64,000 nucleotides of DNA from Chloroflexota bacterium (lineage in GTDB: Bacteria > Chloroflexota > UBA11872 > VXOZ01): positions 931,448 to 995,447 of the forward strand of contig OZ253463.1 in NCBI GenBank assembly GCA_965261635.1. Direction: 5' to 3'. Of this stretch, positions 32,939-48,392 are shown in pieces. How positions within the stretch are numbered: the stretch's first letter is position 1; every line of letters starts with the position of its first letter. The position numbers and the translations under genes are program-made. Below the pieces are notes generated by a model, which saw only the letters and a list, made by a program, of their open reading frames with translations, made no database searches and was not told the DNA's origin.

Positions 32939-33174
32939 CGAAAAAATCCCTTCGTGAGCGTTGCTGGAGGGAGGACGGTCGGGCAGTGAATTGTGACTAT
33001 TATAGCAAAGCCGGCGGCCGGTGCGCGTGCTGCCAAGCGTGCCGCGCGCCTCCTACTCCCCGCCTAGCAATTCTTACCTTATTCTTAGAAAAAGTTATTG
33101 ACAAATCGCAGACGCAGTAGGACACTGGAATTAAGGTGGGAGAACGTACTCCTAGCAGCGAAAGGAGAGGCGAG

Positions 33175-33273
33175 ATGGAACGGTTTCGGCGAGGCCAGCG
33201 CGCCATGCTGACAGTCGTGGTGACGCTGGCCTCACTTGCTCTTGCCGCCGCGCCGGCCGCACGCGCTGGCTGA
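33175..33273 (+). CDS. 32-aa ORF consisting only of a signal-peptide-like sequence
   Basis: AAAGGAGAGG lies 5 nt upstream of the ATG. Product MERFRRGQRAMLTVVVTLASLALAAAPAARAG*. May be a leader peptide or a gene remnant. Confidence 0.3.
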   Translation: MERFRRGQRAMLTVVVTLASLALAAAPAARAG

Positions 33274-33320
33274 TGGCGGTGTGCTGTGCGACTAGTGTAC
33301 ATGCATGAAGGAGGAGTACA

Positions 33321-33854
33321 ATGTTTAGCCGACAGCTTGTACGACGCACAGGAGTAACCGCCGCGCTTGTAGCGGTGGGTATGGTTCTCCTCACAATGCC
33401 GCTGCTTGCCCACTATTTTCTGGGCCATAGCGCCGTGGACGATGGCCCCGACGGACGCGAGATCCGCTGGCTGGACTATACCCAGTACGACGATGCGCGT
33501 CAATGGGCGATTGACCAGTGGCACGCGGAAGGCAAGGTGGCGATTCTGCCCCAAGCCGCCGGGCACATCGTAGACCTCGAATGGCGTGACTACAATGACT
33601 GTGAGCCAGATGCCTGGATTGGATACTATCAATACTATCGGTTTGGCATAGACAAGATATACCTGAATACGTGCAAGATGAACAGCAAGACGGCGGCGCA
33701 GAAGCGGGCCGTGGCGGTGCACGAGCAGGGCCATGCCCTGGGGCTGGCGCATAATCCGGATGATGACCAGATAATGTATGAGTATCCCGCGTCAACAGGC
33801 GACACCACGCCACAGCCGCATGACCTCCAGGATTATCATGAACTTTGGCCCTAA
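33321..33854 (+). CDS. Small secreted metzincin zinc protease
   Basis: HEQGHALGLAH (HExxHxxGxxH) followed by Met-turn DQIMY. N-terminal hydrophobic signal and GAAGGAGGA RBS. Confidence 0.85.
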   Translation: MFSRQLVRRTGVTAALVAVGMVLLTMPLLAHYFLGHSAVDDGPDGREIRWLDYTQYDDARQWAIDQWHAEGKVAILPQAAGHIVDLEWRDYNDCEPDAWIGYYQYYRFGIDKIYLNTCKMNSKTAAQKRAVAVHEQGHALGLAHNPDDDQIMYEYPASTGDTTPQPHDLQDYHELWP

Positions 33855-33933
33855 GAGGCCAGATCTGGGGAAGATGCGGGGCGCTGCTAGCGCTCCGTAC
33901 AAGATCAAATGTAGTTGAAGGAGAGTAGGTGCG

Positions 33934-34536
33934 ATGAAAGCCTCTACACGAAGCGTACTTCTGCTCTTGGGGACACTCCTCTGCGTTCTCGTCGTCGCGG
34001 GTTGCGGCGCGGCCGGCGGGCAGATGACTGGCGCGCGGTCGTTCGTTCACGAGGACATACGCAAGGTCGTAGGTGCCTCTACCCACATATTCGTCGGACG
34101 GGTGGTGGCAGTGGTGGGTAATGAAGGAATACCAACGACAGGGCCAGGGAATGAATCCATTCCGCGGACGCAATTCTCCGTGGAAGTGCTGGAGAACGTC
34201 AAGGGCGAGTTGTCCGGGACCGTGACCGTGAACCAGATGGGCGGCGCGGACGACGGCGGCATTAACGTAGAACTCGAAGGAGATACACTCCTCGAAGCTG
34301 GCAAGACCTACCTGCTAGCCACATGGTATAACTCAGATAAGAGTTGGTATAGCATCGTTGCCGAAGGTTACGGGAACGTGCAGGTCAAGGATGCGCAGAC
34401 GCGGACGCGCGAGGTAGAGCGCTTTCGCGCGGTCATAGCGCATCAGATCTTGCCGTCGTCATCTGAGTTTGAAAAGGTGGGGCCGGTGCCGGCGCAGTTC
34501 AAGCTGCCGCCGGCCAGCGAGCGGACTGCGCGCTAA
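33934..34536 (+). CDS. Lipoprotein of unknown function (OB/beta-barrel-like pattern)
   Basis: Lipobox LVVAGC. HIFVGRVVAVVG...TQFSVEVLENVKGELSGTVTVNQMGG...LEAGKTYLLATWY. Confidence 0.65.
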   Translation: MKASTRSVLLLLGTLLCVLVVAGCGAAGGQMTGARSFVHEDIRKVVGASTHIFVGRVVAVVGNEGIPTTGPGNESIPRTQFSVEVLENVKGELSGTVTVNQMGGADDGGINVELEGDTLLEAGKTYLLATWYNSDKSWYSIVAEGYGNVQVKDAQTRTREVERFRAVIAHQILPSSSEFEKVGPVPAQFKLPPASERTAR

Positions 34537-34609: not shown

Positions 34610-34646
34610 GGAAAGGGACGCGATAACCGCGTCCCTTTCCCTTTTC
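34610..34646 (+). terminator. Rho-independent terminator after the lipoprotein gene
   Basis: ggaaagggacgcg-ataac-cgcgtccctttcc (perfect 13-bp stem) followed by cttttct. Confidence 0.75.
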
Positions 34647-34810
34647 TCCCAGCGGCCGCGACAGGCTCAATCAAACCAGGGCGCTAGGCCCGTCCCACCA
34701 CAGATACGCTTGGCGCACTGCCGCTCAGCGCAGGTGAAGCGGGCCTCGCCCGCGAGGACATCCGTAATGACGCTATAATGTGGGATGAAAGAACACCTGA
34801 CGCCGCGGCG

Positions 34811-34910: not shown

Positions 34911-37409
34911 ATGCGGAATATCCTGAGCGGGCTCTTGGGCGGTCGTGATGAGGAGGAGCAACCTGCGATCCGCCCAAAGCAACGCGACGCTGCTGACTCC
35001 GGCGGTTTGCTGCATGACCTGGGTGGCGGGGTGCTGCTCTATGAGGACGCCTTCGTCCTTGGCAACATCACCTACGGACGCCGTCAGCCGCCGCTCTCAC
35101 TCTCCTTAGAGCGCAGCGCTGAAACGTCCTACAGCGAGATACCCAGCCAGTTTGACGGATGGGATGGAGCGCGGAGCTTTGCCGGCGCCGTTCCCCAAGA
35201 TCACGAGGTGTTTCGGCATTGCACGGCGAGCATGACGGCGACGCTCAGGCAGATGGCGCACGTGATGCGCAGCGACTCCGCGACTTCGACGCAGTCGGCG
35301 TCTTCGATGAAGTCGGCGTCTGCGACGAAGTCGTCCAACCCTTCTATTCTGCTTACCGGGCCTACCGGCTGTGGCAAAACGACCCTGGCTAAGACCTTCT
35401 GCTACCTGGCAAATGAACCGTGTGTTGAGATTACGTTCAGTGGCGATACCGCGCTCAGCGACTTCTACCAGTCGGTGGAGGTTGTCACCCAGGCCGGCAG
35501 CCAGGCGCACAGTACGGCCACGGTGCTCGGTCCGGCCGTGGATGCAATGCTCACCGGCAAGAAACTGCTGCTCAACGAAGTAAACATCATCCCCCAAGAC
35601 CTGCTGAGCGTCTTCACACAGGCGCTCGACGCCCGCCAGGTGGTGCTTTCAGGCAGCGAATGGGGCAATGTGACGGTGCCGGTGCACCCGCAGTTTGGCG
35701 TGATTGCCACGGCCAACCCCGACTACACCGGCACGCTGGAGATCGGCGTCACATGGGAGCGACGGTTCGGTCACGGCACGGGGAACGTGGCTATGGACTT
35801 CCTGCCGTCGGCAGAAGAGGCTGAGGCGATTCATCACGAGCTACGGCGCGTAGCCGTTTTGGACCGTATAGAGGCGATGCCGCCGCTGGAGGCGTGCACG
35901 GCAGTTGCAGCGGTGGCGGCGGAATTGCGCAGCCATCCGGAACTCGGCGGGCTCATGCGCGACCGCGTCTCGACCCGTTCGCTGGTGCACTGGCTCAGCG
36001 TGTGCAGCCTTACCGGTTTTCCCTTGGCCGCGGTTGCAGTGGAGGCCATTCTGACGTTGGTGCCGCCGGAAGCCCGCCAAGAGGCTGCCGAGCTTGTCGA
36101 AAAGATGCTGCGCGCAGTTGCCTGGCCGGCAAGAACGCATCGTCGCGTGAGCGGCGTGCTGCTACCGGAGATTACGGTGCCGGAGGAAAGCGTGGTTGCA
36201 TTGGCGAGTGTTGCGCAAACGCCACTGCCTATGTCACATGGGGAGGAGACCGAAAGGCGAACGGGCGGCTTGGAGAACGAAGTGTACCAGCCGCTGGAGA
36301 GCGATTCGCCGGGCAAGCAACCGGCACTCGCCCGTTACGAGTGCACGCTGCCGGACGGCACGCGGCTGCAATTGCAAGAGCCGCTCTACACGTGGGCGGG
36401 AAACTCGATGGCTTTGGGGCTACGCCTGCGAGCCTGGGATGGAAGTGGCTTCGAGATTACGGACCCGGCCCGGCTGGAGTCGTTTGAATCGGTATTGGGC
36501 GCAGAATATGGCATCACCGTGCCCAGACCTGTCGGCACCATACCGTCCGGTGATGTGGCGCTCCCTTGTTTTACGCGCTCAAGTTGGTCGGCGCTGCGTC
36601 TGCTGGAAGCGGCGCTCGTGCTTGACCGTCCGGTGTACATCAAGGGTCCGCCGGGGAGCGGAAAGTCGGCTCTGGTGCGCACGCTGGCGCGGTTGCGCCA
36701 ACTTCCGTTGGTAGAACTCACGTTTACTGGCGAAACATCCAAGCACGATCTTCTCGTCAGCCGCCGCCTGAGCACGGGAGAGACCCAATGGACGGTGCAA
36801 GCATTTCTCGAAGCTGTCATAAAAGGCTATTTGGTGCTCATAAATGACTATAATCTCGCCTACTCGGACGTTCACTCCTTGTTGAACAGTCTCTTCGACA
36901 AGGGTCGACGCCTAACGCTGCCTGACGGGCGAATGGTAACGGCTCACCCGCGCTTTCGGTTGGTGGCAACCGGGCAACCGGAGGGCCCGGGAGTGAAGCC
37001 GCTCAACGAAGGAGTGGAGAATCGCTTTGGCGCAATTCTCGAGCTCGCATATCCTTCCTCCGGCGAGGAGCTCGCGATACTCCGCAGCGTTGGGCAGAGT
37101 TTGCCGGTTCCGGTTCTCCGGTCGCTGGTTGACTTCGTCGGTCAGTGCCGGCGCTGGTCGGCAGGCGCGGTGCCCGCAGACTTGGAGCAGGAAGCGATTT
37201 GGCAGGATGCCGTCTCGCCCGAGTTGATTGCCGCGGTAGCCGCGGCCGGCAATTGGAGTACGGCGGAGCTTGTGGGAGTGGTGCAGGGCGTGGATGATGC
37301 CGGTGTCTTAGTGGAGCGGTTCCAGGAGGGAGTGCTATCGGCCGCCGCCCCTGCGGCCCGCCGCGTCTTGGAAGCGCTCCTTCTTCAATACAACGTAACA
37401 GTAGCCTAG
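34911..37409 (+). CDS. Tandem AAA_5 (MoxR/dynein-type) ATPase, 832 aa
   Basis: Walker A GPTGCGKT (35358-35381) with LLLNEVN. Second Walker A GPPGSGKS (36645-36668) with LVLINDYN. FGVIATANP and FRLVATGQP sensor-1-like strands. Confidence 0.85.
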   Translation: MRNILSGLLGGRDEEEQPAIRPKQRDAADSGGLLHDLGGGVLLYEDAFVLGNITYGRRQPPLSLSLERSAETSYSEIPSQFDGWDGARSFAGAVPQDHEVFRHCTASMTATLRQMAHVMRSDSATSTQSASSMKSASATKSSNPSILLTGPTGCGKTTLAKTFCYLANEPCVEITFSGDTALSDFYQSVEVVTQAGSQAHSTATVLGPAVDAMLTGKKLLLNEVNIIPQDLLSVFTQALDARQVVLSGSEWGNVTVPVHPQFGVIATANPDYTGTLEIGVTWERRFGHGTGNVAMDFLPSAEEAEAIHHELRRVAVLDRIEAMPPLEACTAVAAVAAELRSHPELGGLMRDRVSTRSLVHWLSVCSLTGFPLAAVAVEAILTLVPPEARQEAAELVEKMLRAVAWPARTHRRVSGVLLPEITVPEESVVALASVAQTPLPMSHGEETERRTGGLENEVYQPLESDSPGKQPALARYECTLPDGTRLQLQEPLYTWAGNSMALGLRLRAWDGSGFEITDPARLESFESVLGAEYGITVPRPVGTIPSGDVALPCFTRSSWSALRLLEAALVLDRPVYIKGPPGSGKSALVRTLARLRQLPLVELTFTGETSKHDLLVSRRLSTGETQWTVQAFLEAVIKGYLVLINDYNLAYSDVHSLLNSLFDKGRRLTLPDGRMVTAHPRFRLVATGQPEGPGVKPLNEGVENRFGAILELAYPSSGEELAILRSVGQSLPVPVLRSLVDFVGQCRRWSAGAVPADLEQEAIWQDAVSPELIAAVAAAGNWSTAELVGVVQGVDDAGVLVERFQEGVLSAAAPAARRVLEALLLQYNVTVA

Positions 37410-37411
37410 GC

Positions 37412-39412
37412 ATGACTTCTGCGACATTGACGAACACAGCAGCTCAGGCTGAAGCGCGCGTGCGCAGTACACGCTATACGCATGGCGAAGTAGTGGCGCT
37501 CGCGCGGCTCATTCTCCGCGATTCACGCCTGAACGTCGTGTCGGGCAGCGATTGGGCATATATAGCACGCGGGCACACGCTAACGTATCCAACGCGTGTG
37601 CTGCACACCTGGCCCGGCACAAGCATCGTTGGCGCTATCTGCCAGCAGATGGGTGAAGCCCAGCACACAGGCGTGATGGGCGAGCGGGCGTTGCAGAGCT
37701 TTTCCCGCATCGCCCCGCTGGCGTTCGACGCCGTCATGCCGTTCGCGCGTTTTGTGAACGAACTGCGCGTAAACCGCATGCATTTGGCGCGTTACCCCGG
37801 CTCGGCGCGATTCCTGCGGGCGCTCTATGCCGACAATCCGCAGTGGTCTTCCGGCAGGCGGCGCAGCACACCCCTCAGGGAGCAAGTACAGCAAGGCCTA
37901 TTGGATCGGTGGCTCCATGAAGTATGGCCGGAAAGTGCGCGCCCGATGCACATTGGGAGTACGGCCAATCGTTACGTCGACGTCCTCTGGCCCGGCGTGC
38001 GGGACGCGCTGATCCGAGACTCCATGCCGCAGATGCTGGACATCCTGGCCCGGCGGATGCTGCCCATTCTGCACGACCTCGTGGAAGAGGATGCTCGATT
38101 GTCGCAGAGGCGGCCGGAAGAGGAACGGCCCATTCCAGAAGATGATGCCACTGCCGAATATGACGACGAGGCCCTAGGGGAATTGCATATCGAGGCGGGC
38201 AGCGCCGATGATACTGAATCGTCGTCACGCGAAGATGGCGATGGTCAGATGAACGAATCTTCAGCGCCCCGATCGGACGTAGATCCCATTCCTGTGTCTG
38301 CTGATGAAGAAGGCGGCCCCGCCAAAGTAGAGAGCAGCCCCAACGAGCAGGCCGAACTCCGGCAAGATGGCGATGCGGGTTCACCACAGCAACCCAAAAT
38401 CGAGGTTCCCCCGCGACTAATCGACCCAAGCATGTTCAAAGCGCATCCCGGCGCACTCAATCCAATGCCGCGTACAATCGTGCAGGGCTTGGGCGATCGT
38501 CCGGCCGCGCCGAAGACGGACTATGAGAACTTCGACTATCGCAGGACGGTGCGGCGGCTGGAGCCCGCGATCCTGCGCTCGCTTAACGGTGAATCGGGGC
38601 GGAGGGGCCTCAAGGAGATCATGATGCGGCGCCGTTTTGGAACGCTTGAACTGGGCCGGCGACCTCGCCGCCGCCGGGGCGGCGATAGTGGCGAGATCGA
38701 TACCGATCACGTGGAGCGCCTGGTTGTTGCGCCGGAACAAGCGTTCCTCAAAGGCGTGCGCACGCCGCGAGCCGATCATCAAAAGGACTTTGCTGCTATC
38801 ATCCTCATGGATATCAGCGGTAGCATGGTAGCCAAGGGGTACTCGACCCGCAAGTTCGACCACACTGTGGATGCTGCCGTGATTTTCGCCGAGATTCATG
38901 AACGATTGCGGATTCCCTATCAGATGATGGCGTTCTCGGAGGAAGTCTGGCGAATGCGCTCGTTCGACGAGTGTACTTTCTCAACTCAGGTGGTCGCCAA
39001 CGAGCGGACCTACACGCCCAAAGACCTGAGCAGTGTATTCCGCACCATGTATGAGCAGCCGCACAAGAAGACGGACGATGCCGGAGCGATGCGCCAGGCG
39101 GTGCAGGACATGCAACCGCATAAGGGATTCAAGACCATTTTGGTCTTGACGGACGGTATTTCGTCTCAACGGCGAAAACTGCGGGAAGTTCTGCTTCAAG
39201 TGGAGCGGCGCAATGGCATGGTTGGTTCCGGGGACGCAATGGGTATTATCGTGTTTGGAATTGGCGTGCCCGGCGATGCGCTAAACGAATCTTACATAGT
39301 ACAAGCGGAAGGCCGGTTCTTGCGCTGCTTGCAGACGGTGGTGGTGCCTGACGTGGCGCGGCTGCCCCGTATGATCCAGACGACGATCGAGCGCCGCATT
39401 CGCGGTGTTTAA
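37412..39412 (+). CDS. VWA/MIDAS-domain protein with helical N-domain and acidic linker, 666 aa
   Basis: MIDAS DISGS (38810-38824) and ILVLTDG. D/E/S-rich stretch at residues ~225-325. Start is 2 nt after the upstream stop. Confidence 0.85.
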   Translation: MTSATLTNTAAQAEARVRSTRYTHGEVVALARLILRDSRLNVVSGSDWAYIARGHTLTYPTRVLHTWPGTSIVGAICQQMGEAQHTGVMGERALQSFSRIAPLAFDAVMPFARFVNELRVNRMHLARYPGSARFLRALYADNPQWSSGRRRSTPLREQVQQGLLDRWLHEVWPESARPMHIGSTANRYVDVLWPGVRDALIRDSMPQMLDILARRMLPILHDLVEEDARLSQRRPEEERPIPEDDATAEYDDEALGELHIEAGSADDTESSSREDGDGQMNESSAPRSDVDPIPVSADEEGGPAKVESSPNEQAELRQDGDAGSPQQPKIEVPPRLIDPSMFKAHPGALNPMPRTIVQGLGDRPAAPKTDYENFDYRRTVRRLEPAILRSLNGESGRRGLKEIMMRRRFGTLELGRRPRRRRGGDSGEIDTDHVERLVVAPEQAFLKGVRTPRADHQKDFAAIILMDISGSMVAKGYSTRKFDHTVDAAVIFAEIHERLRIPYQMMAFSEEVWRMRSFDECTFSTQVVANERTYTPKDLSSVFRTMYEQPHKKTDDAGAMRQAVQDMQPHKGFKTILVLTDGISSQRRKLREVLLQVERRNGMVGSGDAMGIIVFGIGVPGDALNESYIVQAEGRFLRCLQTVVVPDVARLPRMIQTTIERRIRGV

Positions 39413-39426
39413 CCAACAAGGAGCAC

Positions 39427-40197
39427 GTGGTGAAGTCCAGATCGCAGCGTTCTGACACCGAAAAGCTTCCCTGGGGTCCGCCCGCGGTGATTGTGGTGTG
39501 GGTAATTTGGCTCGTGTTGGCGCACCTAAGCCGGGCGGTCCTTGACTTTTACACAGCGATTTCCCCATTGCGCTACTTGGGCGCCGCGAACGTGCCGAAT
39601 CTGCGCAACTTGATCTTTGCCCCCGGCATGCTGGTGGCTGTCGCCCTGCTGGTTCCCGTTCTTATCGCGGCCGGCATTGCTTTCCGCATAGTAGCCTCCC
39701 GCTATCGGGGCGCCCCCATGGAGGCACTTGCATTTACCCGGCAGAGCCCTGTCTGGATGCTGGCGGTGGTAGTGCTCTTTGGTGTCTTGCTGACGTTTCT
39801 TCTGCAGTTCGCCCTTGGCTGGTCCAATTACCCGCTGCCGTTTCTTGAACCCAACGCTGGATTCCCCTCGCCTCTTGATCTGGTGCTGTACGCCGTGAGC
39901 GTGCCGGTGACGGCTCTTTTGGCGGGAATACTCGTGTTTGGATTCTGCTATCCCATCCTGGTGGCAGGCTTGGGCAGATGGGTGGGAGGGCTTCTTTGCG
40001 CCGTATGCTTTGCCTTGCCACAACTTGCTATGCAGGGCGTCTATTGGCAACCGGCGGTGGCCTTGCTGGTAATGGGCATCTACCTGACAGCAGTACGGAT
40101 GCGGACAGAATCGGCCTATACCGCTACGCTCGGCTATACCGGCTTTTCGATTTACATCGCCCTATCGGTAGTCTTGGCAGAACTAGCCATTGCTTAG
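39427..40197 (+). CDS. Polytopic membrane protein, CPBP-like fold without catalytic residues (tentative)
   Basis: 7-8 hydrophobic segments. MEALAFTR, CFALPQL and GIYLTAVRMRTESAYTATLGY line up with CPBP motifs 1-3, but EE, H and H/N are missing. AAGGAG at 39418; GTG 39430 may be the real start. Confidence 0.6.
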   Translation: MVKSRSQRSDTEKLPWGPPAVIVVWVIWLVLAHLSRAVLDFYTAISPLRYLGAANVPNLRNLIFAPGMLVAVALLVPVLIAAGIAFRIVASRYRGAPMEALAFTRQSPVWMLAVVVLFGVLLTFLLQFALGWSNYPLPFLEPNAGFPSPLDLVLYAVSVPVTALLAGILVFGFCYPILVAGLGRWVGGLLCAVCFALPQLAMQGVYWQPAVALLVMGIYLTAVRMRTESAYTATLGYTGFSIYIALSVVLAELAIA

Positions 40198-40269: not shown

Positions 40270-40296
40270 CACGCCCTGCATGCATTGCAGGGCGTG
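40270..40296. terminator. Hairpin between convergent genes (cacgccctgca-tgcat-tgcagggcgtg)
   Basis: Perfect 11-bp stem with no clear U-tract on either strand. Confidence 0.3.
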
Positions 40297-40501: not shown

Positions 40502-40924
40502 TCAACTGTCGGTGTCGCTCCACAGATACCGCCCGGTTACACTCGAGACTAAAACTATGATCACATCAACAAACGCCCAAATGACCTGATTAGCGGTCGA
40601 CTCGCCCTCTATACCGAAATTCAGAAAGTTGAACCAATTTGAAAAGAACCAGAGAGCCAGCATGACCGTAATGTACGTTGCCAAGTTGACTTCCAGATAT
40701 TCACGCGTAATCGCCCCATCCGAACCCCGGCTCAAAGCACGTTTGCGCTGATAGTTGACGACCAATGCGATCACAATTGCCAGGGCAATCGGCCAATCCA
40801 AGATGCCCCACACATCGACGGTACCCAGCGCATTTCGATAGAAGGAATTAAACACAAAGTGCACCGCCACTACGAGCGCGACGCCAATGAGGAAAACCGA
40901 CAAGAGCTTCTTGACTGCTCCCAT
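40502..40924 (-). CDS. Hypothetical 4-TM membrane protein
   Basis: Hydrophobic profile and GGAGAAAC-type RBS region. No family recognised. Confidence 0.55.
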   Translation of the reverse strand: MGAVKKLLSVFLIGVALVVAVHFVFNSFYRNALGTVDVWGILDWPIALAIVIALVVNYQRKRALSRGSDGAITREYLEVNLATYITVMLALWFFSNWFNFLNFGIEGESTANQVIWAFVDVIIVLVSSVTGRYLWSDTDS

Positions 40925-44353: not shown

Positions 44354-44914
44354 CTAGCACCCCTTTTGCTCCGCCGTAGGGTTCTCCCTATCGCACTCCC
44401 ACCGCGCCGGGTTGTCGTGGATGTACTGGCGAATCTTTGTCAGAGACTCTTCGCTGCGCACAACGTGCTCGAAGTAATTCCGTTGCCAGAGGGGTCTGCC
44501 GGAGAGCCCATGCGCAGAATTGACCCGTTTCGTGCTGACGGTCTTGAATGCGCCAATCAGACGTCCCAAGGGCTTACGTTTGCCGTCCGGTGAGGCCGCT
44601 CCGGTAGGGGCGGTTCGCGAACCGCCCCTACGCGTGTCGTCAGTGATCATGATGATGCCGTGGAGATGGTTCGGCATGACGACGAATTCGTCCAACACTA
44701 CGTAAGGGTATTGGGTCCCCAGCCACTGCCAGGCATCGGACGCCAATAGGCCTGTATTGTTCAGGCACATATTGCCATCTACTATCTCACCGAACAGACA
44801 CGCCCGTCCTTGGACAACCACGGTCACAAAGTAAGCGCCCACCTGCGAATAGTCGTAACCCTTTAGGCGGATAGAACGCCGACGCCGGCTGTCTGGAGCG
44901 TAGGGGCTACTCAT
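44354..44914 (-). CDS. REP-associated tyrosine transposase (RAYT; IS200/Y1 HUH family), apparently intact
   Basis: RLKGYDYSQ.GAYFVT, HUH motif MPNHLHGII, LGRLIGAFKT.STKRVN, WQRNYFEHVVRSEESL..IRQYIHDNPARW. Confidence 0.85.
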   Translation of the reverse strand: MSSPYAPDSRRRRSIRLKGYDYSQVGAYFVTVVVQGRACLFGEIVDGNMCLNNTGLLASDAWQWLGTQYPYVVLDEFVVMPNHLHGIIMITDDTRRGGSRTAPTGAASPDGKRKPLGRLIGAFKTVSTKRVNSAHGLSGRPLWQRNYFEHVVRSEESLTKIRQYIHDNPARWECDRENPTAEQKGC

Positions 44915-46655: not shown

Positions 46656-48392
46656 CTACGGGCGATACTCCAAAAGCGCCGATCTGCCAACGATAGCAAC
46701 GATTCGTACTATTACCTCCCTTCCATCGGCATCCGTTAATCGCAGGATTTCGCCTGGCACAAAGTTGACCGGCTGCTGCTTCCCTTCGTTGATGGAGACA
46801 TTGGAAGCGTATAGATACGTCCGGTCATGAGTATCGCGAATAGGGTTCAGCCTACCCTTGAGCCCCGGTATGTAACCTGTGGCCTCAGAGAAGATGACAC
46901 TTCCACCCTTGATGGCTTTAAGCTCTACTGCTAGTGCCCCCTGGTACGGCAGCCATTCGTGTTCCAAGTGTGCGGCGTAGCCGGGGGCAGAGGCGAAAAC
47001 GGTCATAGGAAGATGGGTCGTGTAAAGGTCTATATTCGCTTCACCGTTTTCGTCAGTGGTTGCATTCTTCCAGGTCTTGTCGGGATAGAGGGCTAGCAGG
47101 TTTGCGCCAGGTAAGGGCTGTCCCGCAGACCGCACAGTGATGACAGCAATGGCGGGGCTTTGCTCTTGCACTGCCGCAGGGATAGTAAGGCACACTTCAG
47201 AGTTATCGATCAATCGGTATTCGGGGAGCATTCCAGTAAGCTCCCTTGTCTCGCGCAGGATGATCGGGACACCGTCTCCCCGCCGTTCCATGTAGTATTG
47301 TCTTTGCTCCGAACCACGAACTCTGCCTACCGGCATTTTCCCTAACACAGAGGTCAGCACTTCGTTGCGAGTCGCTTGTCGCTCCGCCATGCTCTCCACA
47401 GTTAGGTTGTTTGGCAATGAGCCTGGCGATTGAATCTCTAGGCGGTCCTCGAATATCGAAAAGCGAATCTTGCTTCCGCGTATTGAGTAGTCGCGATGTG
47501 CAACGGCGTTTACTAGAGCCTCGAACAACGCCATCTGGCTGTACTGTGGAATATCCACGCGCGCTGGCACCTTGCGGGCAGCGACATGCATGTTCCTGGT
47601 CGCGAAAGCCATTGCATTGGCGACTTGTAGATTAAGCGGGCCAGTAATCTCTTGCGCGTCAATTTGCCCGGAAGCTCGGTGGCTTCCTCTGTAGCGGGTC
47701 GCCGTGATGCAAGCATTGGGGAGCCAAGTCTCAGGATTCTGGGTACACAGCAACACTCCAGCCACCGTGGCACGTAGGATCCCGGCCTCGTCGTTGGCCA
47801 GGAGCGCCAACTTTTCGAGCGCAGACTCAGGCCTTGCAGCGCCTTCCGCGCTCAAGAGGGGTTTCCAAAGCGTTTCCTCCAGAGTGTTGAATCCTGTATT
47901 CTGAACGGTCTGTTCATCGAATGACGGAAACCGCGCCTGTCCCCTGCGCTGTGCCAAACGCAGACGCTCGTCACTCGTCATCTTGCGTTTAGAGCCGCCA
48001 ACACGAACATAACTCTCTCCGCGGGTCTCGTGTTGAGCATCTCCTTCCGGAACGGTGACCAGTAAGAAGGACTTCCCATCAGCGAGTTGTCTATGATAGG
48101 TGCTGATTCGGACAGCCGGCTTGATTGCGTCCGAACTAACCTCGACCAGGAGGGAATCCAACGCGACGATCTGTTCTCGCGACATGCCCTGCACTTGGCC
48201 GTCGTCTGTGACACCGCATAGCAACACTCCGCCATTCGCATTGGCGAACGCTGCGATTTCGTCTGCCCAGTCGTCGCGAGCGGGGCTTTTCGGATGATTG
48301 CCGGCGAATTCTACGGACTTGAATTCCCAGGTGCTATCCTCGCCCAATTTCAGCTGACGCTGGATGTCTTTGTTGCTGTATGCCATTGGCAA
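46656..48392 (-). CDS. AlbA_2 (Schlafen-type) + HATPase_c_4 protein with extra C-terminal beta domains
   Basis: STWEFKSVEF..ADEIAAFANANGGVLLCGV.DDG.V.G (AlbA_2), FEALVNAVAHRDYS..GSKIRFSIFEDRLEIQSPGSLP (HATPase_c_4), then ~175 aa with VITVRSAGQPLPGANLLA..TTDENGEANIDL..ASAPGY (CarboxypepD_reg-like). Confidence 0.8.
   Translation of the reverse strand: MPMAYSNKDIQRQLKLGEDSTWEFKSVEFAGNHPKSPARDDWADEIAAFANANGGVLLCGVTDDGQVQGMSREQIVALDSLLVEVSSDAIKPAVRISTYHRQLADGKSFLLVTVPEGDAQHETRGESYVRVGGSKRKMTSDERLRLAQRRGQARFPSFDEQTVQNTGFNTLEETLWKPLLSAEGAARPESALEKLALLANDEAGILRATVAGVLLCTQNPETWLPNACITATRYRGSHRASGQIDAQEITGPLNLQVANAMAFATRNMHVAARKVPARVDIPQYSQMALFEALVNAVAHRDYSIRGSKIRFSIFEDRLEIQSPGSLPNNLTVESMAERQATRNEVLTSVLGKMPVGRVRGSEQRQYYMERRGDGVPIILRETRELTGMLPEYRLIDNSEVCLTIPAAVQEQSPAIAVITVRSAGQPLPGANLLALYPDKTWKNATTDENGEANIDLYTTHLPMTVFASAPGYAAHLEHEWLPYQGALAVELKAIKGGSVIFSEATGYIPGLKGRLNPIRDTHDRTYLYASNVSINEGKQQPVNFVPGEILRLTDADGREVIVRIVAIVGRSALLEYRP

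Follow-up and report, generated by a model that had tools for sequence, protein, structure and literature searches.

The subject of this report is a pair of genes, extended to a trio in one clade, within a 64,000-nucleotide stretch of DNA from a Chloroflexota bacterium (assembly GCA_965261635.1, contig OZ253463.1, positions 931,448 to 995,447 of the forward strand), which we refer to throughout as the window. Three consecutive genes, lying on the + strand like all features below unless marked otherwise, encode a two-module MoxR/dynein-type (AAA_5) ATPase (g1, 34911-37409, 832 amino acids), a partner protein with a VWA domain and its metal-ion-dependent adhesion site, MIDAS (g2, 37412-39412, 666 amino acids), and a polytopic membrane protein of the CPBP (Rce1-like) kind that is catalytically dead (g3, 39427-40197, 256 amino acids, GTG start). 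We found that g1 and g2 are conserved as a pair and that g3 accompanies them only in the window's own clade. The overall picture that we consider probable is that the pair is a MoxR AAA+/VWA remodeller of the NorQD/CbbQO type whose ATPase has been internally duplicated, and that g3 is a lineage-specific accessory. What is new is the combination of a duplicated MoxR ATPase with a separate VWA partner; each part, and the likely mechanism, that of NorQD/CbbQO, is of a known kind, and the pair is not a new kind of system.

The original prediction for this locus, made from the letters of the window, joined the three genes into a single unit and described g1 and g2 as a "split mini-midasin". Its observations were confirmed on nearly all counts given below, and its interpretation was partly supported.

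The ATPase g1 and its partner g2

The tandem of AAA_5 modules proposed for g1 was borne out by Pfam (E 5e-36, 124.2 bits against a cut-off of 22), in which the match falls into two stretches at approximately residues 141-277 and 575-706. An AlphaFold2 (AF2) model built on 26 diverse homologues (predicted local distance difference test, pLDDT, 74; predicted TM-score, pTM, 0.77) begins with a small N-terminal beta/alpha region, which is followed by module 1 (35331-36110; residues 141-400, with a core at 141-295 and a helical lid at 300-400), a disordered stretch, a beta domain of four strands and a helix (36324-36509; residues 472-533) and finally module 2 (36576-37388; residues 556-826, core 556-711, lid 717-826). 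The spacer of about 290 residues between the modules, in which no motif had been recognized, is therefore accounted for in the model by the lid of module 1, a linker, a small extra domain and the N-terminal helix of module 2. Two residues of the beta domain, G483 and L529, are invariant in the family, together with G542 just past it.

Across 26 sequences the motif set of module 1 is complete. Its Walker A reads GPTGCGKT, with the P-loop Cys in 25 of the 26 sequences and Ser in one, and the Walker B (hhhhN222-E223), the sensor-1 motif TAN269P, R284/R285 and the sensor-2 motif S-T-R356 are all invariant. Module 2 has an intact Walker A (GPxGxGKS), a Walker B of the form N645-[E/D]646, with Asp646 in the window clade where the catalytic Glu would be expected, and an invariant R705. 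Its sensor residues are degenerate, the sensor-1 position being variable (Q/F/Y/A and others) with loss of the Asn, and the sensor-2 Arg being replaced by an invariant A785-E786. These sensor residues are lost, and module 2 probably hydrolyses ATP poorly. Both modules share a further peculiarity in that the position of the Walker-B Asp is occupied by Asn in 26 of 26 sequences (N222-E223, 35574-35579; N645-D646, 36843-36848); in alignments to midasin, N222 and N645 face the Walker-B Asp.

Two cysteines of module 1 are conserved, C154 in the P-loop (35370-35372; 25 of 26 sequences) and C164 (35400-35402; 24 of 26), and a third, C171, is found in half of them (13 of 26). NorQ has a P-loop disulphide, C46-C68, that can reversibly prevent it from binding ATP (PMC13036017), and by analogy a redox switch at C154/C164 is conceivable.

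How did g1 come to have two modules? Aligned with each other by hhalign, they give a probability of 99.8% (E 2e-27), and they share both the N-E Walker B and an F(S/T)G(D/E)T motif, which are specific to this family. The match and these shared features indicate that the tandem arose through internal duplication. Both modules are also predicted by AF2 to carry the two beta-hairpins, one in helix 2 and one before sensor 1, that characterise the MoxR/dynein/midasin clade, with strand pairs at 187-193/200-206 (helix-2 insert) and 243-249/252-257 (pre-sensor-1) in module 1 and at 616-621/624-629 and 667-669/675-677 in module 2. A shorter homologue, P0097 (553 residues), was considered as a one-module ancestor of g1 and rejected, its g1 gene being frameshifted just past the Walker A of module 2 with the remaining 230 residues in an overlapping open reading frame (ORF). 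This split into overlapping ORFs of 553 and 230 residues occurs at loci L076/L077 (6001-8312) in several long assemblies (contigs of more than 1 Mb), and the frameshift is either a sequencing artefact or the mark of a pseudogene.

For g2, a helical N-domain, a disordered acidic linker and a C-terminal VWA domain with an intact MIDAS had been described, and all three were recovered by the AF2 model (pLDDT 68), by an alignment of 19 sequences, from which the conservation given here is taken, and, for the VWA fold, by Foldseek. The N-terminal domain (37412-38107; residues 1-232) is modelled as helices with a small sheet. E82 and N116/R119/V120/N121 are invariant in it, and it matched no Pfam family in any of the 19 members, even at E<=10. 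In distant orthologues residues 77-82 (37640-37657) form an HExxE on a helix that follows the small beta-sheet, which is a zincin-like arrangement; the window clade has QQMGE at this site, of which only E82 is invariant, and the site may be a degenerate metal- or peptide-binding site. A DUF2201/metallopeptidase-like identity for the N-domain found no support, given the Pfam result in the 19 orthologues and the change of HExxE to QQxxE in the window clade.

The linker (38108-38515; residues 233-368, about 135 residues) is predicted to be disordered, with pLDDT about 25 and values below 50 over residues 235-367. The acidity that had been noted is real in the window's protein, in which residues 225-325 are 32% D/E with a net charge of -24; across the family, however, the linker has a net charge of -19 in the window clade and only 0 to -9 in distant orthologues, where it is Pro-rich, and on these sequences its acidity appears to be clade-specific. 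Between linker and VWA domain lies a pre-VWA segment (38516-38788; residues 369-459) that holds an invariant Arg-rich stretch, GRRPRRRRGGDSGEID, with R416, R417, P418, R419, R422, G424, G427 and D430 all invariant. AF2 confidence is low here (below 50 at residues 412-429 and 446-457), and Pfam gives a weak VWA_CoxE match over residues 419-479. By analogy with NorD, discussed below, the Arg-rich segment (residues 407-459) is a candidate for a pore-inserting finger.

The VWA domain itself (38789-39409; residues 460-666) has an intact MIDAS, whose residues D467-x-S469-x-S471, T554 and D581 are invariant across the 19 homologues, and it ends in a conserved basic C-terminus, ERRIR. The window's g2 falls below the threshold of Pfam VWA_2 (E 8e-4), and 19 of 19 homologues match this family, the best at 9e-7. 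In a Foldseek comparison of the domain with the PDB the MIDAS domains of Rea1/MDN1 came top (4e-7), followed by TRAP, integrin I-domains, factor B and the VWA domain of NorD (3e-5, root-mean-square deviation 3.9-4.7 Å).

All three genes are under purifying selection and are genuine genes, not chance ORFs: against five relatives the ratio of nonsynonymous to synonymous substitution rates (dN/dS) was 0.08-0.13 for g1, 0.09-0.20 for g2 and 0.17-0.22 for g3.

Distribution of the pair and the genes that follow it

Scanning one genome from each of 185,579 species gave 75 distinct loci, every one of them in a Chloroflexota assembly and nearly all in assemblies flagged as metagenome-assembled genomes; isolate names suggest that many of the sources are sponge, coral or marine. 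A search of 5.8 billion proteins returned 102 homologues of g1, and the named ones are all from Chloroflexi/Chloroflexota except for one "uncultured bacterium" and a distant plant midasin (3e-11). Both tblastn and ORF clustering place g2 immediately 3' of g1 in 66 of the 75 loci, and six of the nine without an adjoining g2 clearly end at a contig edge or hold only a partial match to g1. No third conserved gene emerged from all-against-all clustering of the ORFs of the 75 loci, in which nothing recurs across clades except g1, g2 and their shadow ORFs. The pair is kept down to about 40% identity, and its flanks are syntenic and housekeeping in character, features that argue for vertical inheritance rather than a mobile island. 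Its distribution is confined to uncultured Chloroflexota.

The triad put forward in the original prediction did not prove to be the unit that is conserved. Gene g3 directly follows g2 only in the window's own clade, L001-L015, whose g1 proteins are at least 80% identical to that of the window; it is found there in 14 of 15 loci, the remaining one (L003) ending inside g2, and it is absent from the other 51 loci that hold g2. Because g3 is limited to one clade and the downstream gene varies elsewhere, we regard the g1-g2 pair as the conserved functional unit and the triad as a feature of a single clade.

What occupies the position after g2 in other clades? In 18 loci of another clade (for example L033, 12275-13141) it is a gene on the same strand for a protein of 285-329 residues with 5-6 transmembrane segments, which has no Pfam match. 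This protein was rejected as a diverged g3 or CPBP, since hhalign gave probabilities of 0.1% against g3 and 1.2% against CPBPs, and it may, but need not, be coincidence that this position holds unrelated membrane proteins in two clades. In about 16 loci of one clade (for example L020, 12417-16339, and L076, 10403-13662) g1-g2 is followed on the same strand by rpsA, encoding ribosomal protein S1, and the gene of a Clp-type double-AAA ATPase. Convergent genes for BNR/sortilin-like proteins or solute-binding proteins follow g2 in other clades, and flanks elsewhere include GT4 and GH57 genes.

That g3 is CPBP-like and lacks the catalytic residues was affirmed by profile comparison. The window's protein itself is below threshold for the Pfam Rce1-like family (PF02517; 19.8 bits against a cut-off of 22.4), and 14 of 19 members of its family match, the best at 2e-4. 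An exhaustive profile search of 1.84 billion representatives gave 26 matches and reached CPBPs at E 2e-8 to 1e-3; all ten of the ten remote matches that were tested are genuine CPBPs, with PF02517 at 1e-18 to 1e-21, and hhalign of the g3 family against them gave a probability of 99% (E 6e-18, 225 columns). The g3 profile had no match among PDB sequences. In place of the CPBP motifs EExxxR, FxxxH and HxxxN, g3 has A166/G167 for the EE, F171 for the R, Q199 and Y237 for the two His and S241 for the N; Q199 and Y237 are invariant in the g3 family and G167 is at least 90% conserved. Since the catalytic positions are all replaced, g3 is on this evidence a conserved pseudo-enzyme member of the CPBP family, a true homologue that is catalytically dead. 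A crude hydropathy count gives 6 transmembrane segments, fewer than the 7-8 first proposed.

At the window locus g1 and g2 are separated by 2 nucleotides (nt) and g2 and g3 by 14 nt, as had been stated, or by 17 nt if g3 begins at a second in-frame GTG at 39430. The latter lies 6 nt past a GGAG (39420), and homologues are 255-256 residues long; because both the placement of the GGAG and these lengths fit it better, 39430 is the likelier start. Across L001-L015 the g2-g3 spacer ranges from 18 to 512 nt. It is expanded to 430-512 nt in L014 (12510-12990) and L011 (12502-12932), and in L014 degenerate G-rich repeats, GGTGGCTGGTG...AACGGATG..., take up this space; the ribosome-binding site and start context of g3 are preserved.

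Relatives, proposed mechanism and alternatives

Which known system does the pair most resemble? Compared with PDB sequences, the g1 family profile matches midasin, CbbQ, NorQ, CobS and dynein, with midasin highest at 6e-66. That value, however, adds up as many as nine stretches of a protein with six modules, and as decisive evidence of kinship it was rejected on inspection of the individual stretches. For module 1 the best single midasin stretch scores 30.5 bits, CbbQ 36.4 and NorQ 24; for module 2 the values are 50.5 bits for the best midasin stretch, 47 for CbbQ and 53.9 for NorQ. These per-module scores place g1 in the MoxR/midasin/dynein clade without making it specifically midasin-like. 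Taken with a linker acidity that fades in distant orthologues and a layout of g2 like that of NorD, they make MoxR-VWA pairs of the NorQD/CbbQO type the closest known systems.

The likeness to NorQ-NorD, which serves in cNOR maturation, and to the rubisco activase CbbQ-CbbO, in both of which a MoxR ATPase of the "CGN" group works with a VWA partner, has several parts. An AAA_5 gene is directly followed by the gene of a partner of about 600-770 residues; among relatives of solved structure, NorQ or CbbQ comes out best or equal best for each g1 module (36-54 bits); the helix-2 insert and pre-sensor-1 hairpins are predicted in g1; and its P-loop Cys is conserved, as it is in NorQ and CbbQ (PMC13036017). 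The 2026 electron cryo-microscopy study of NorQD describes NorD as an N-terminal domain (residues 1-241), an unresolved linker (242-393) and then the VWA domain, a finger of NorD entering the NorQ pore, its C-terminus contacting the post-sensor-1 loops and the linker being stretched and twisted so as to remodel the client (PMC13036017). Like NorD, g2 consists of an N-domain, a long flexible linker and a C-terminal VWA domain with MIDAS, and its pre-VWA segment and conserved C-terminus match the two NorD contact elements in position. There are also clear differences. Unlike NorQ and CbbQ, g1 has two fused modules, an extra N-domain, an inter-module beta domain, a degenerate module 2 and Asn-Glu rather than Asp-Glu in its Walker B. 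Beyond the generic VWA fold no likeness in sequence between g2 and NorD or CbbO could be detected, no NorD/CbbO/CobT family was matched in Pfam or NCBIfam, and there are no nor or cbb genes near g1-g2.

As the original prediction held, no characterised family has this architecture in Pfam, NCBIfam, PADLOC, PDB sequences or the searched literature, and our literature search on tandem or two-domain MoxR proteins and on this Chloroflexi family found nothing relevant. MoxR proper and CGN proteins have a single AAA module per chain of about 260-380 residues and assemble as homohexamers, unlike the two modules and 832 residues of g1. In NCBIfam g1 remains below the cut-offs of GvpN (TIGR02640, 67.4 against 266.8) and CobS (TIGR01650, 29.2 against 558.6). 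CbbQ_C (PF08406) is outside the best 25 of the 59 Pfam families (E<=1) for the window's g1 and appears in the precomputed domains of a few homologues only. A chelatase pair (BchI/BchD, CobS/CobT) was likewise not indicated, CobT_C being found only at 0.049 in 3 of 19 g2 members and no CobN or BchH among the annotated neighbours.

By analogy with NorQD, dynein and midasin, a working model for the pair can be put forward. Three g1 chains would form one six-module ring, with consecutive modules arranged as in dynein and midasin, and in it the competent sites of module 1 would alternate with module-2 sites that probably bind nucleotide but have no sensor residues. The VWA domain of g2 would dock on the ring as in NorQD, its Arg-rich pre-VWA segment reaching into a pore to whose lining the model assigns the invariant acidic residues D179, D184, E190, E608 and D613 of g1, and its conserved basic C-terminus would likewise contact the ring. 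The MIDAS and/or the N-domain of g2 may hold the client, and ATP-driven movement of the VWA domain and finger relative to the N-domain would stretch the linker of about 135 residues and so remodel it. Gene g3 would stand outside this core, as an inactive CPBP acquired by the window clade; it may serve at the membrane as a non-catalytic scaffold or tether, or may equally be a mere co-transcribed neighbour. A precedent for a non-proteolytic role is SpdC of S. aureus, also a polytopic CAAX-protease-like membrane protein of CPBP fold: formation of the SagB-SpdC complex is independent of the SpdC CAAX-proteolysis residue, and mutants of its putative catalytic residues look wild-type (10.1101/2020.05.21.109470). 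The analogy has limits, in that g3 is replaced at all five catalytic positions and any partner it has would be a cytoplasmic AAA+/VWA machine, whereas that of SpdC is an extracellular hydrolase.

Several observations weigh against this reading. No client can be named, because the neighbourhoods of the pair differ between clades. The stoichiometry of the ring and the docking of a finger in its pore are putative, the latter being modelled on NorQD, and the AF2 models are moderately confident (pLDDT 74 for g1 and 68 for g2). The g2 profile found nothing better than E 0.5 among PDB sequences and no NorD chain, although NorD chains are present there (9qhe_G, 9qhg_G). The invariant Walker-B Asn could mean a slow or switch-like ATPase and not processive remodelling. 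Finally, a gene for a polytopic membrane protein lies directly 3' of g2 in 33 of 66 loci (g3 in 15, three of them by tblastn only, and the unrelated family in 18), and because half of the loci carry such a gene the link to the membrane may be more general than we have assumed.

Could the pair instead be a true bacterial relative or precursor of midasin/Rea1/MDN1, the machine of eukaryotic 60S biogenesis, acting on ribosomal particles by binding a ligand through its MIDAS? The analogy of architecture drawn in the original prediction is fair: both have concatenated AAA_5 modules of the same clade, some of them degenerate, and a MIDAS behind a long disordered linker, which is acidic in the window clade. 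Midasin also has the highest summed profile score, a plant midasin is the sole g1 homologue not attributable to Chloroflexota, the Rea1/MDN1 MIDAS is the closest structural match of the g2 VWA domain, and in 16 loci the pair stands directly upstream of, and co-directional with, rpsA and the Clp ATPase gene. The specific relationship did not survive closer comparison, however, and we consider it very improbable. Module by module, midasin (30 and 50 bits) is no closer than CbbQ (36) and NorQ (54); the strong resemblance of the g1 modules to each other (E 2e-27) and their common, family-specific Asn-Glu Walker B point to a duplication internal to this lineage; the acidity of the linker fades in distant orthologues; the Foldseek margin over the TRAP, integrin and NorD domains is small; and the rpsA synteny is confined to one clade, as the whole distribution is to one bacterial phylum. 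Moreover, midasin has six modules to the two of g1, its MIDAS is not on a separate polypeptide, and g1-g2 has no counterpart of its linker or tail domains. A role in conflict with phages, with g3 as membrane effector or sensor, is suggested by the vWA-MoxR systems of Kaur, Burroughs, Iyer and Aravind (2020), in which a MoxR-type ATPase and a vWA protein are likewise encoded together and such cores serve in conflict (PMC7159879), by PADLOC matches of g1 (mad8, IetA, TRIP13) and by a Schlafen/AlbA_2 gene and an IS200-like fragment 4-8 kb downstream. Yet these matches are weak and restricted to the P-loop region, most of them covering 20-60 residues, and g2 and g3 have none in PADLOC; there is no effector or VMAP-like third component; the ATPase is a tandem; and the flanks are syntenic and housekeeping, the pair persists to about 40% identity and its GC content is unremarkable. 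We hold a defence function to be extremely unlikely.

The two remaining alternatives concern the geometry of g1 and the place of g3. Most bacterial tandem-AAA proteins stack their rings, and g1 might accordingly be a type-II hexamer of two stacked rings like p97 or ClpB, with partner and function unchanged; the roughly 150 residues, beta domain included, between the lid of module 1 and module 2 would allow either geometry. Against stacking, dynein and midasin, the known concatenated members of the same AAA clade, have successive modules next to one another within a single ring (PMC3495828). The best Foldseek matches of full-length g1 are dynein motor domains (about 800-900 columns, E 1e-18), including fragments of consecutive modules (AAA1-3, AAA2-4), and there is no type-II double-ring ATPase (p97/ClpB/NSF) in the top 50, a result that fits a side-by-side arrangement of the modelled modules but is not proof of it. 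The alternation of complete and degenerate sites would also suit an in-plane heteromeric ring, and we judge stacked rings to be unlikely. The other alternative makes all three proteins an obligate machine, in which the tandem ATPase and the MIDAS protein would do their work at the membrane, either upon the dead CPBP or by way of it, for instance in extracting or assembling a membrane or envelope client, with a non-homologous membrane partner in other clades. In its favour, g3 is co-directional, has its own ribosome-binding site and follows a spacer of 14-17 nt with no terminator-like site; in each of the 14 loci of the clade whose sequence continues past g2 it is retained at this place, and it is under purifying selection; and the unrelated membrane protein of the second clade (18 loci) has the same position and orientation. 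However, g3 is missing from the 51 loci of other clades, the membrane protein of the second clade is related neither to it nor to CPBPs, and in at least 29 loci that place is taken by a soluble or convergent gene (rpsA and the Clp ATPase, BNR/sortilin-like, solute-binding protein). In some close relatives the spacer reaches 181-512 nt, filling with G-rich repeats, and two independent events at the level of clades carry no statistical weight. That g3 is obligatory thus seems improbable to us, and a remodeller formed by g1 and g2, with g3 as an accessory, is the reading that we retain.

In the literature consulted here, the joining of MoxR-like modules in one chain is seen as something that happened early in eukaryotes and gave rise to dynein and midasin (PMC3495828). 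The present family shows such a fusion fixed across an entire bacterial lineage: a MoxR of two modules that divide the labour between them, still served by a VWA/MIDAS partner on its own chain. MoxR-VWA pairs are widespread and few have a known mechanism or client. The g1-g2 pair offers a small, expressible model for the evolution of ring concatenation and site degeneration, and a test case for the generality of the finger-in-pore twisting mechanism of NorQD. It also points to a conserved housekeeping function in Chloroflexota, and its invariant Walker-B Asn is a biochemical oddity in its own right. In the fullest form of our proposal g1 would be an independent bacterial concatenation of MoxR modules, with non-canonical Asn-Glu Walker B motifs and a three-chain, six-module ring of strictly alternating competent and degenerate sites, which together with g2 would be a core housekeeping remodeller for some conserved complex of Chloroflexota, with a possible link to ribosome or envelope, and would be tethered to the membrane by the dead CPBP in the window clade. 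We put this forward as a possibility and doubt that it will hold in every part. If the three-chain ring is real, it would represent a living half-way stage, open to experiment, between the homohexamers of MoxR and the single chains of midasin or dynein.

Boundaries of the locus and its surroundings

The limits given for the unit in the original prediction were found again. At the 5' side is an intrinsic terminator (34610-34649) of the upstream gene (33934-34536), whose 13-bp stem (34610-34640; 9 of the pairs GC) closes on a loop of 5 nt and runs into a T-rich tail, CTTTTCTCCC. A TATAAT hexamer at 34774-34779, 132 nt 5' of the g1 start, is a weak candidate for a -10 box, picked out by eye; it was not called in the consensus scan because it has no -35 match. 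At the 3' side, 73 nt past the g3 stop and between g3 and a convergent ORF, is a palindromic hairpin (40270-40296), whose perfect 11-bp stem reads CACGCCCTGCA-TGCAT-TGCAGGGCGTG; a T-run is absent, and for want of this tail the terminator scan did not call it.

The window as a whole is chromosomal DNA of about 59% GC, against which a GC content of 0.59-0.62 at the locus is unremarkable, and it contains housekeeping genes throughout. Among these are genes for Rho, MutS, a histidine kinase, a DegT-type aminotransferase, Sua5/YciO, a HAD hydrolase, an AP-endonuclease-fold protein, a class II ribonucleotide reductase, a sulfatase and IlvD; the flanks of the unit supply Sua5/YciO, the HAD hydrolase, the AP-endonuclease-fold protein, the ribonucleotide reductase, MutS and Rho. 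An Rfam scan of the whole window gave 0 matches.

Between the AP-endonuclease-fold gene and g1 are two ORFs with no family match, 33000-33752 (-; 250 amino acids) and 33934-34536 (+; 200 amino acids). By tblastn both were detected in L005/L006 (83-91% identity) and neither in the closest relatives, L001/L002, whose g1 is 96-97% identical to that of the window and in which the gap upstream of g1 is about 0.7-0.85 kb, compared with about 2 kb in the window. The region 33000-34536 looks like a small indel or insertion. The ORF convergent with g3, 40502-40924 (-), encodes 140 amino acids with about 3 transmembrane segments and no family match, and it is present in 13 of 15 loci of the close clade (43-98% identity). 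Further downstream, an ORF of 186 amino acids at 44354-44914 (-) has a C-terminal third that matches the IS200-like Y1 transposase model (E 1.3e-5) over no more than the model's second half and is probably a transposase remnant or a divergent relative, and 46656-48392 (-) encodes a 578-residue protein with Schlafen/AlbA_2, HATPase_c_4 and CarboxypepD_reg-like domains.

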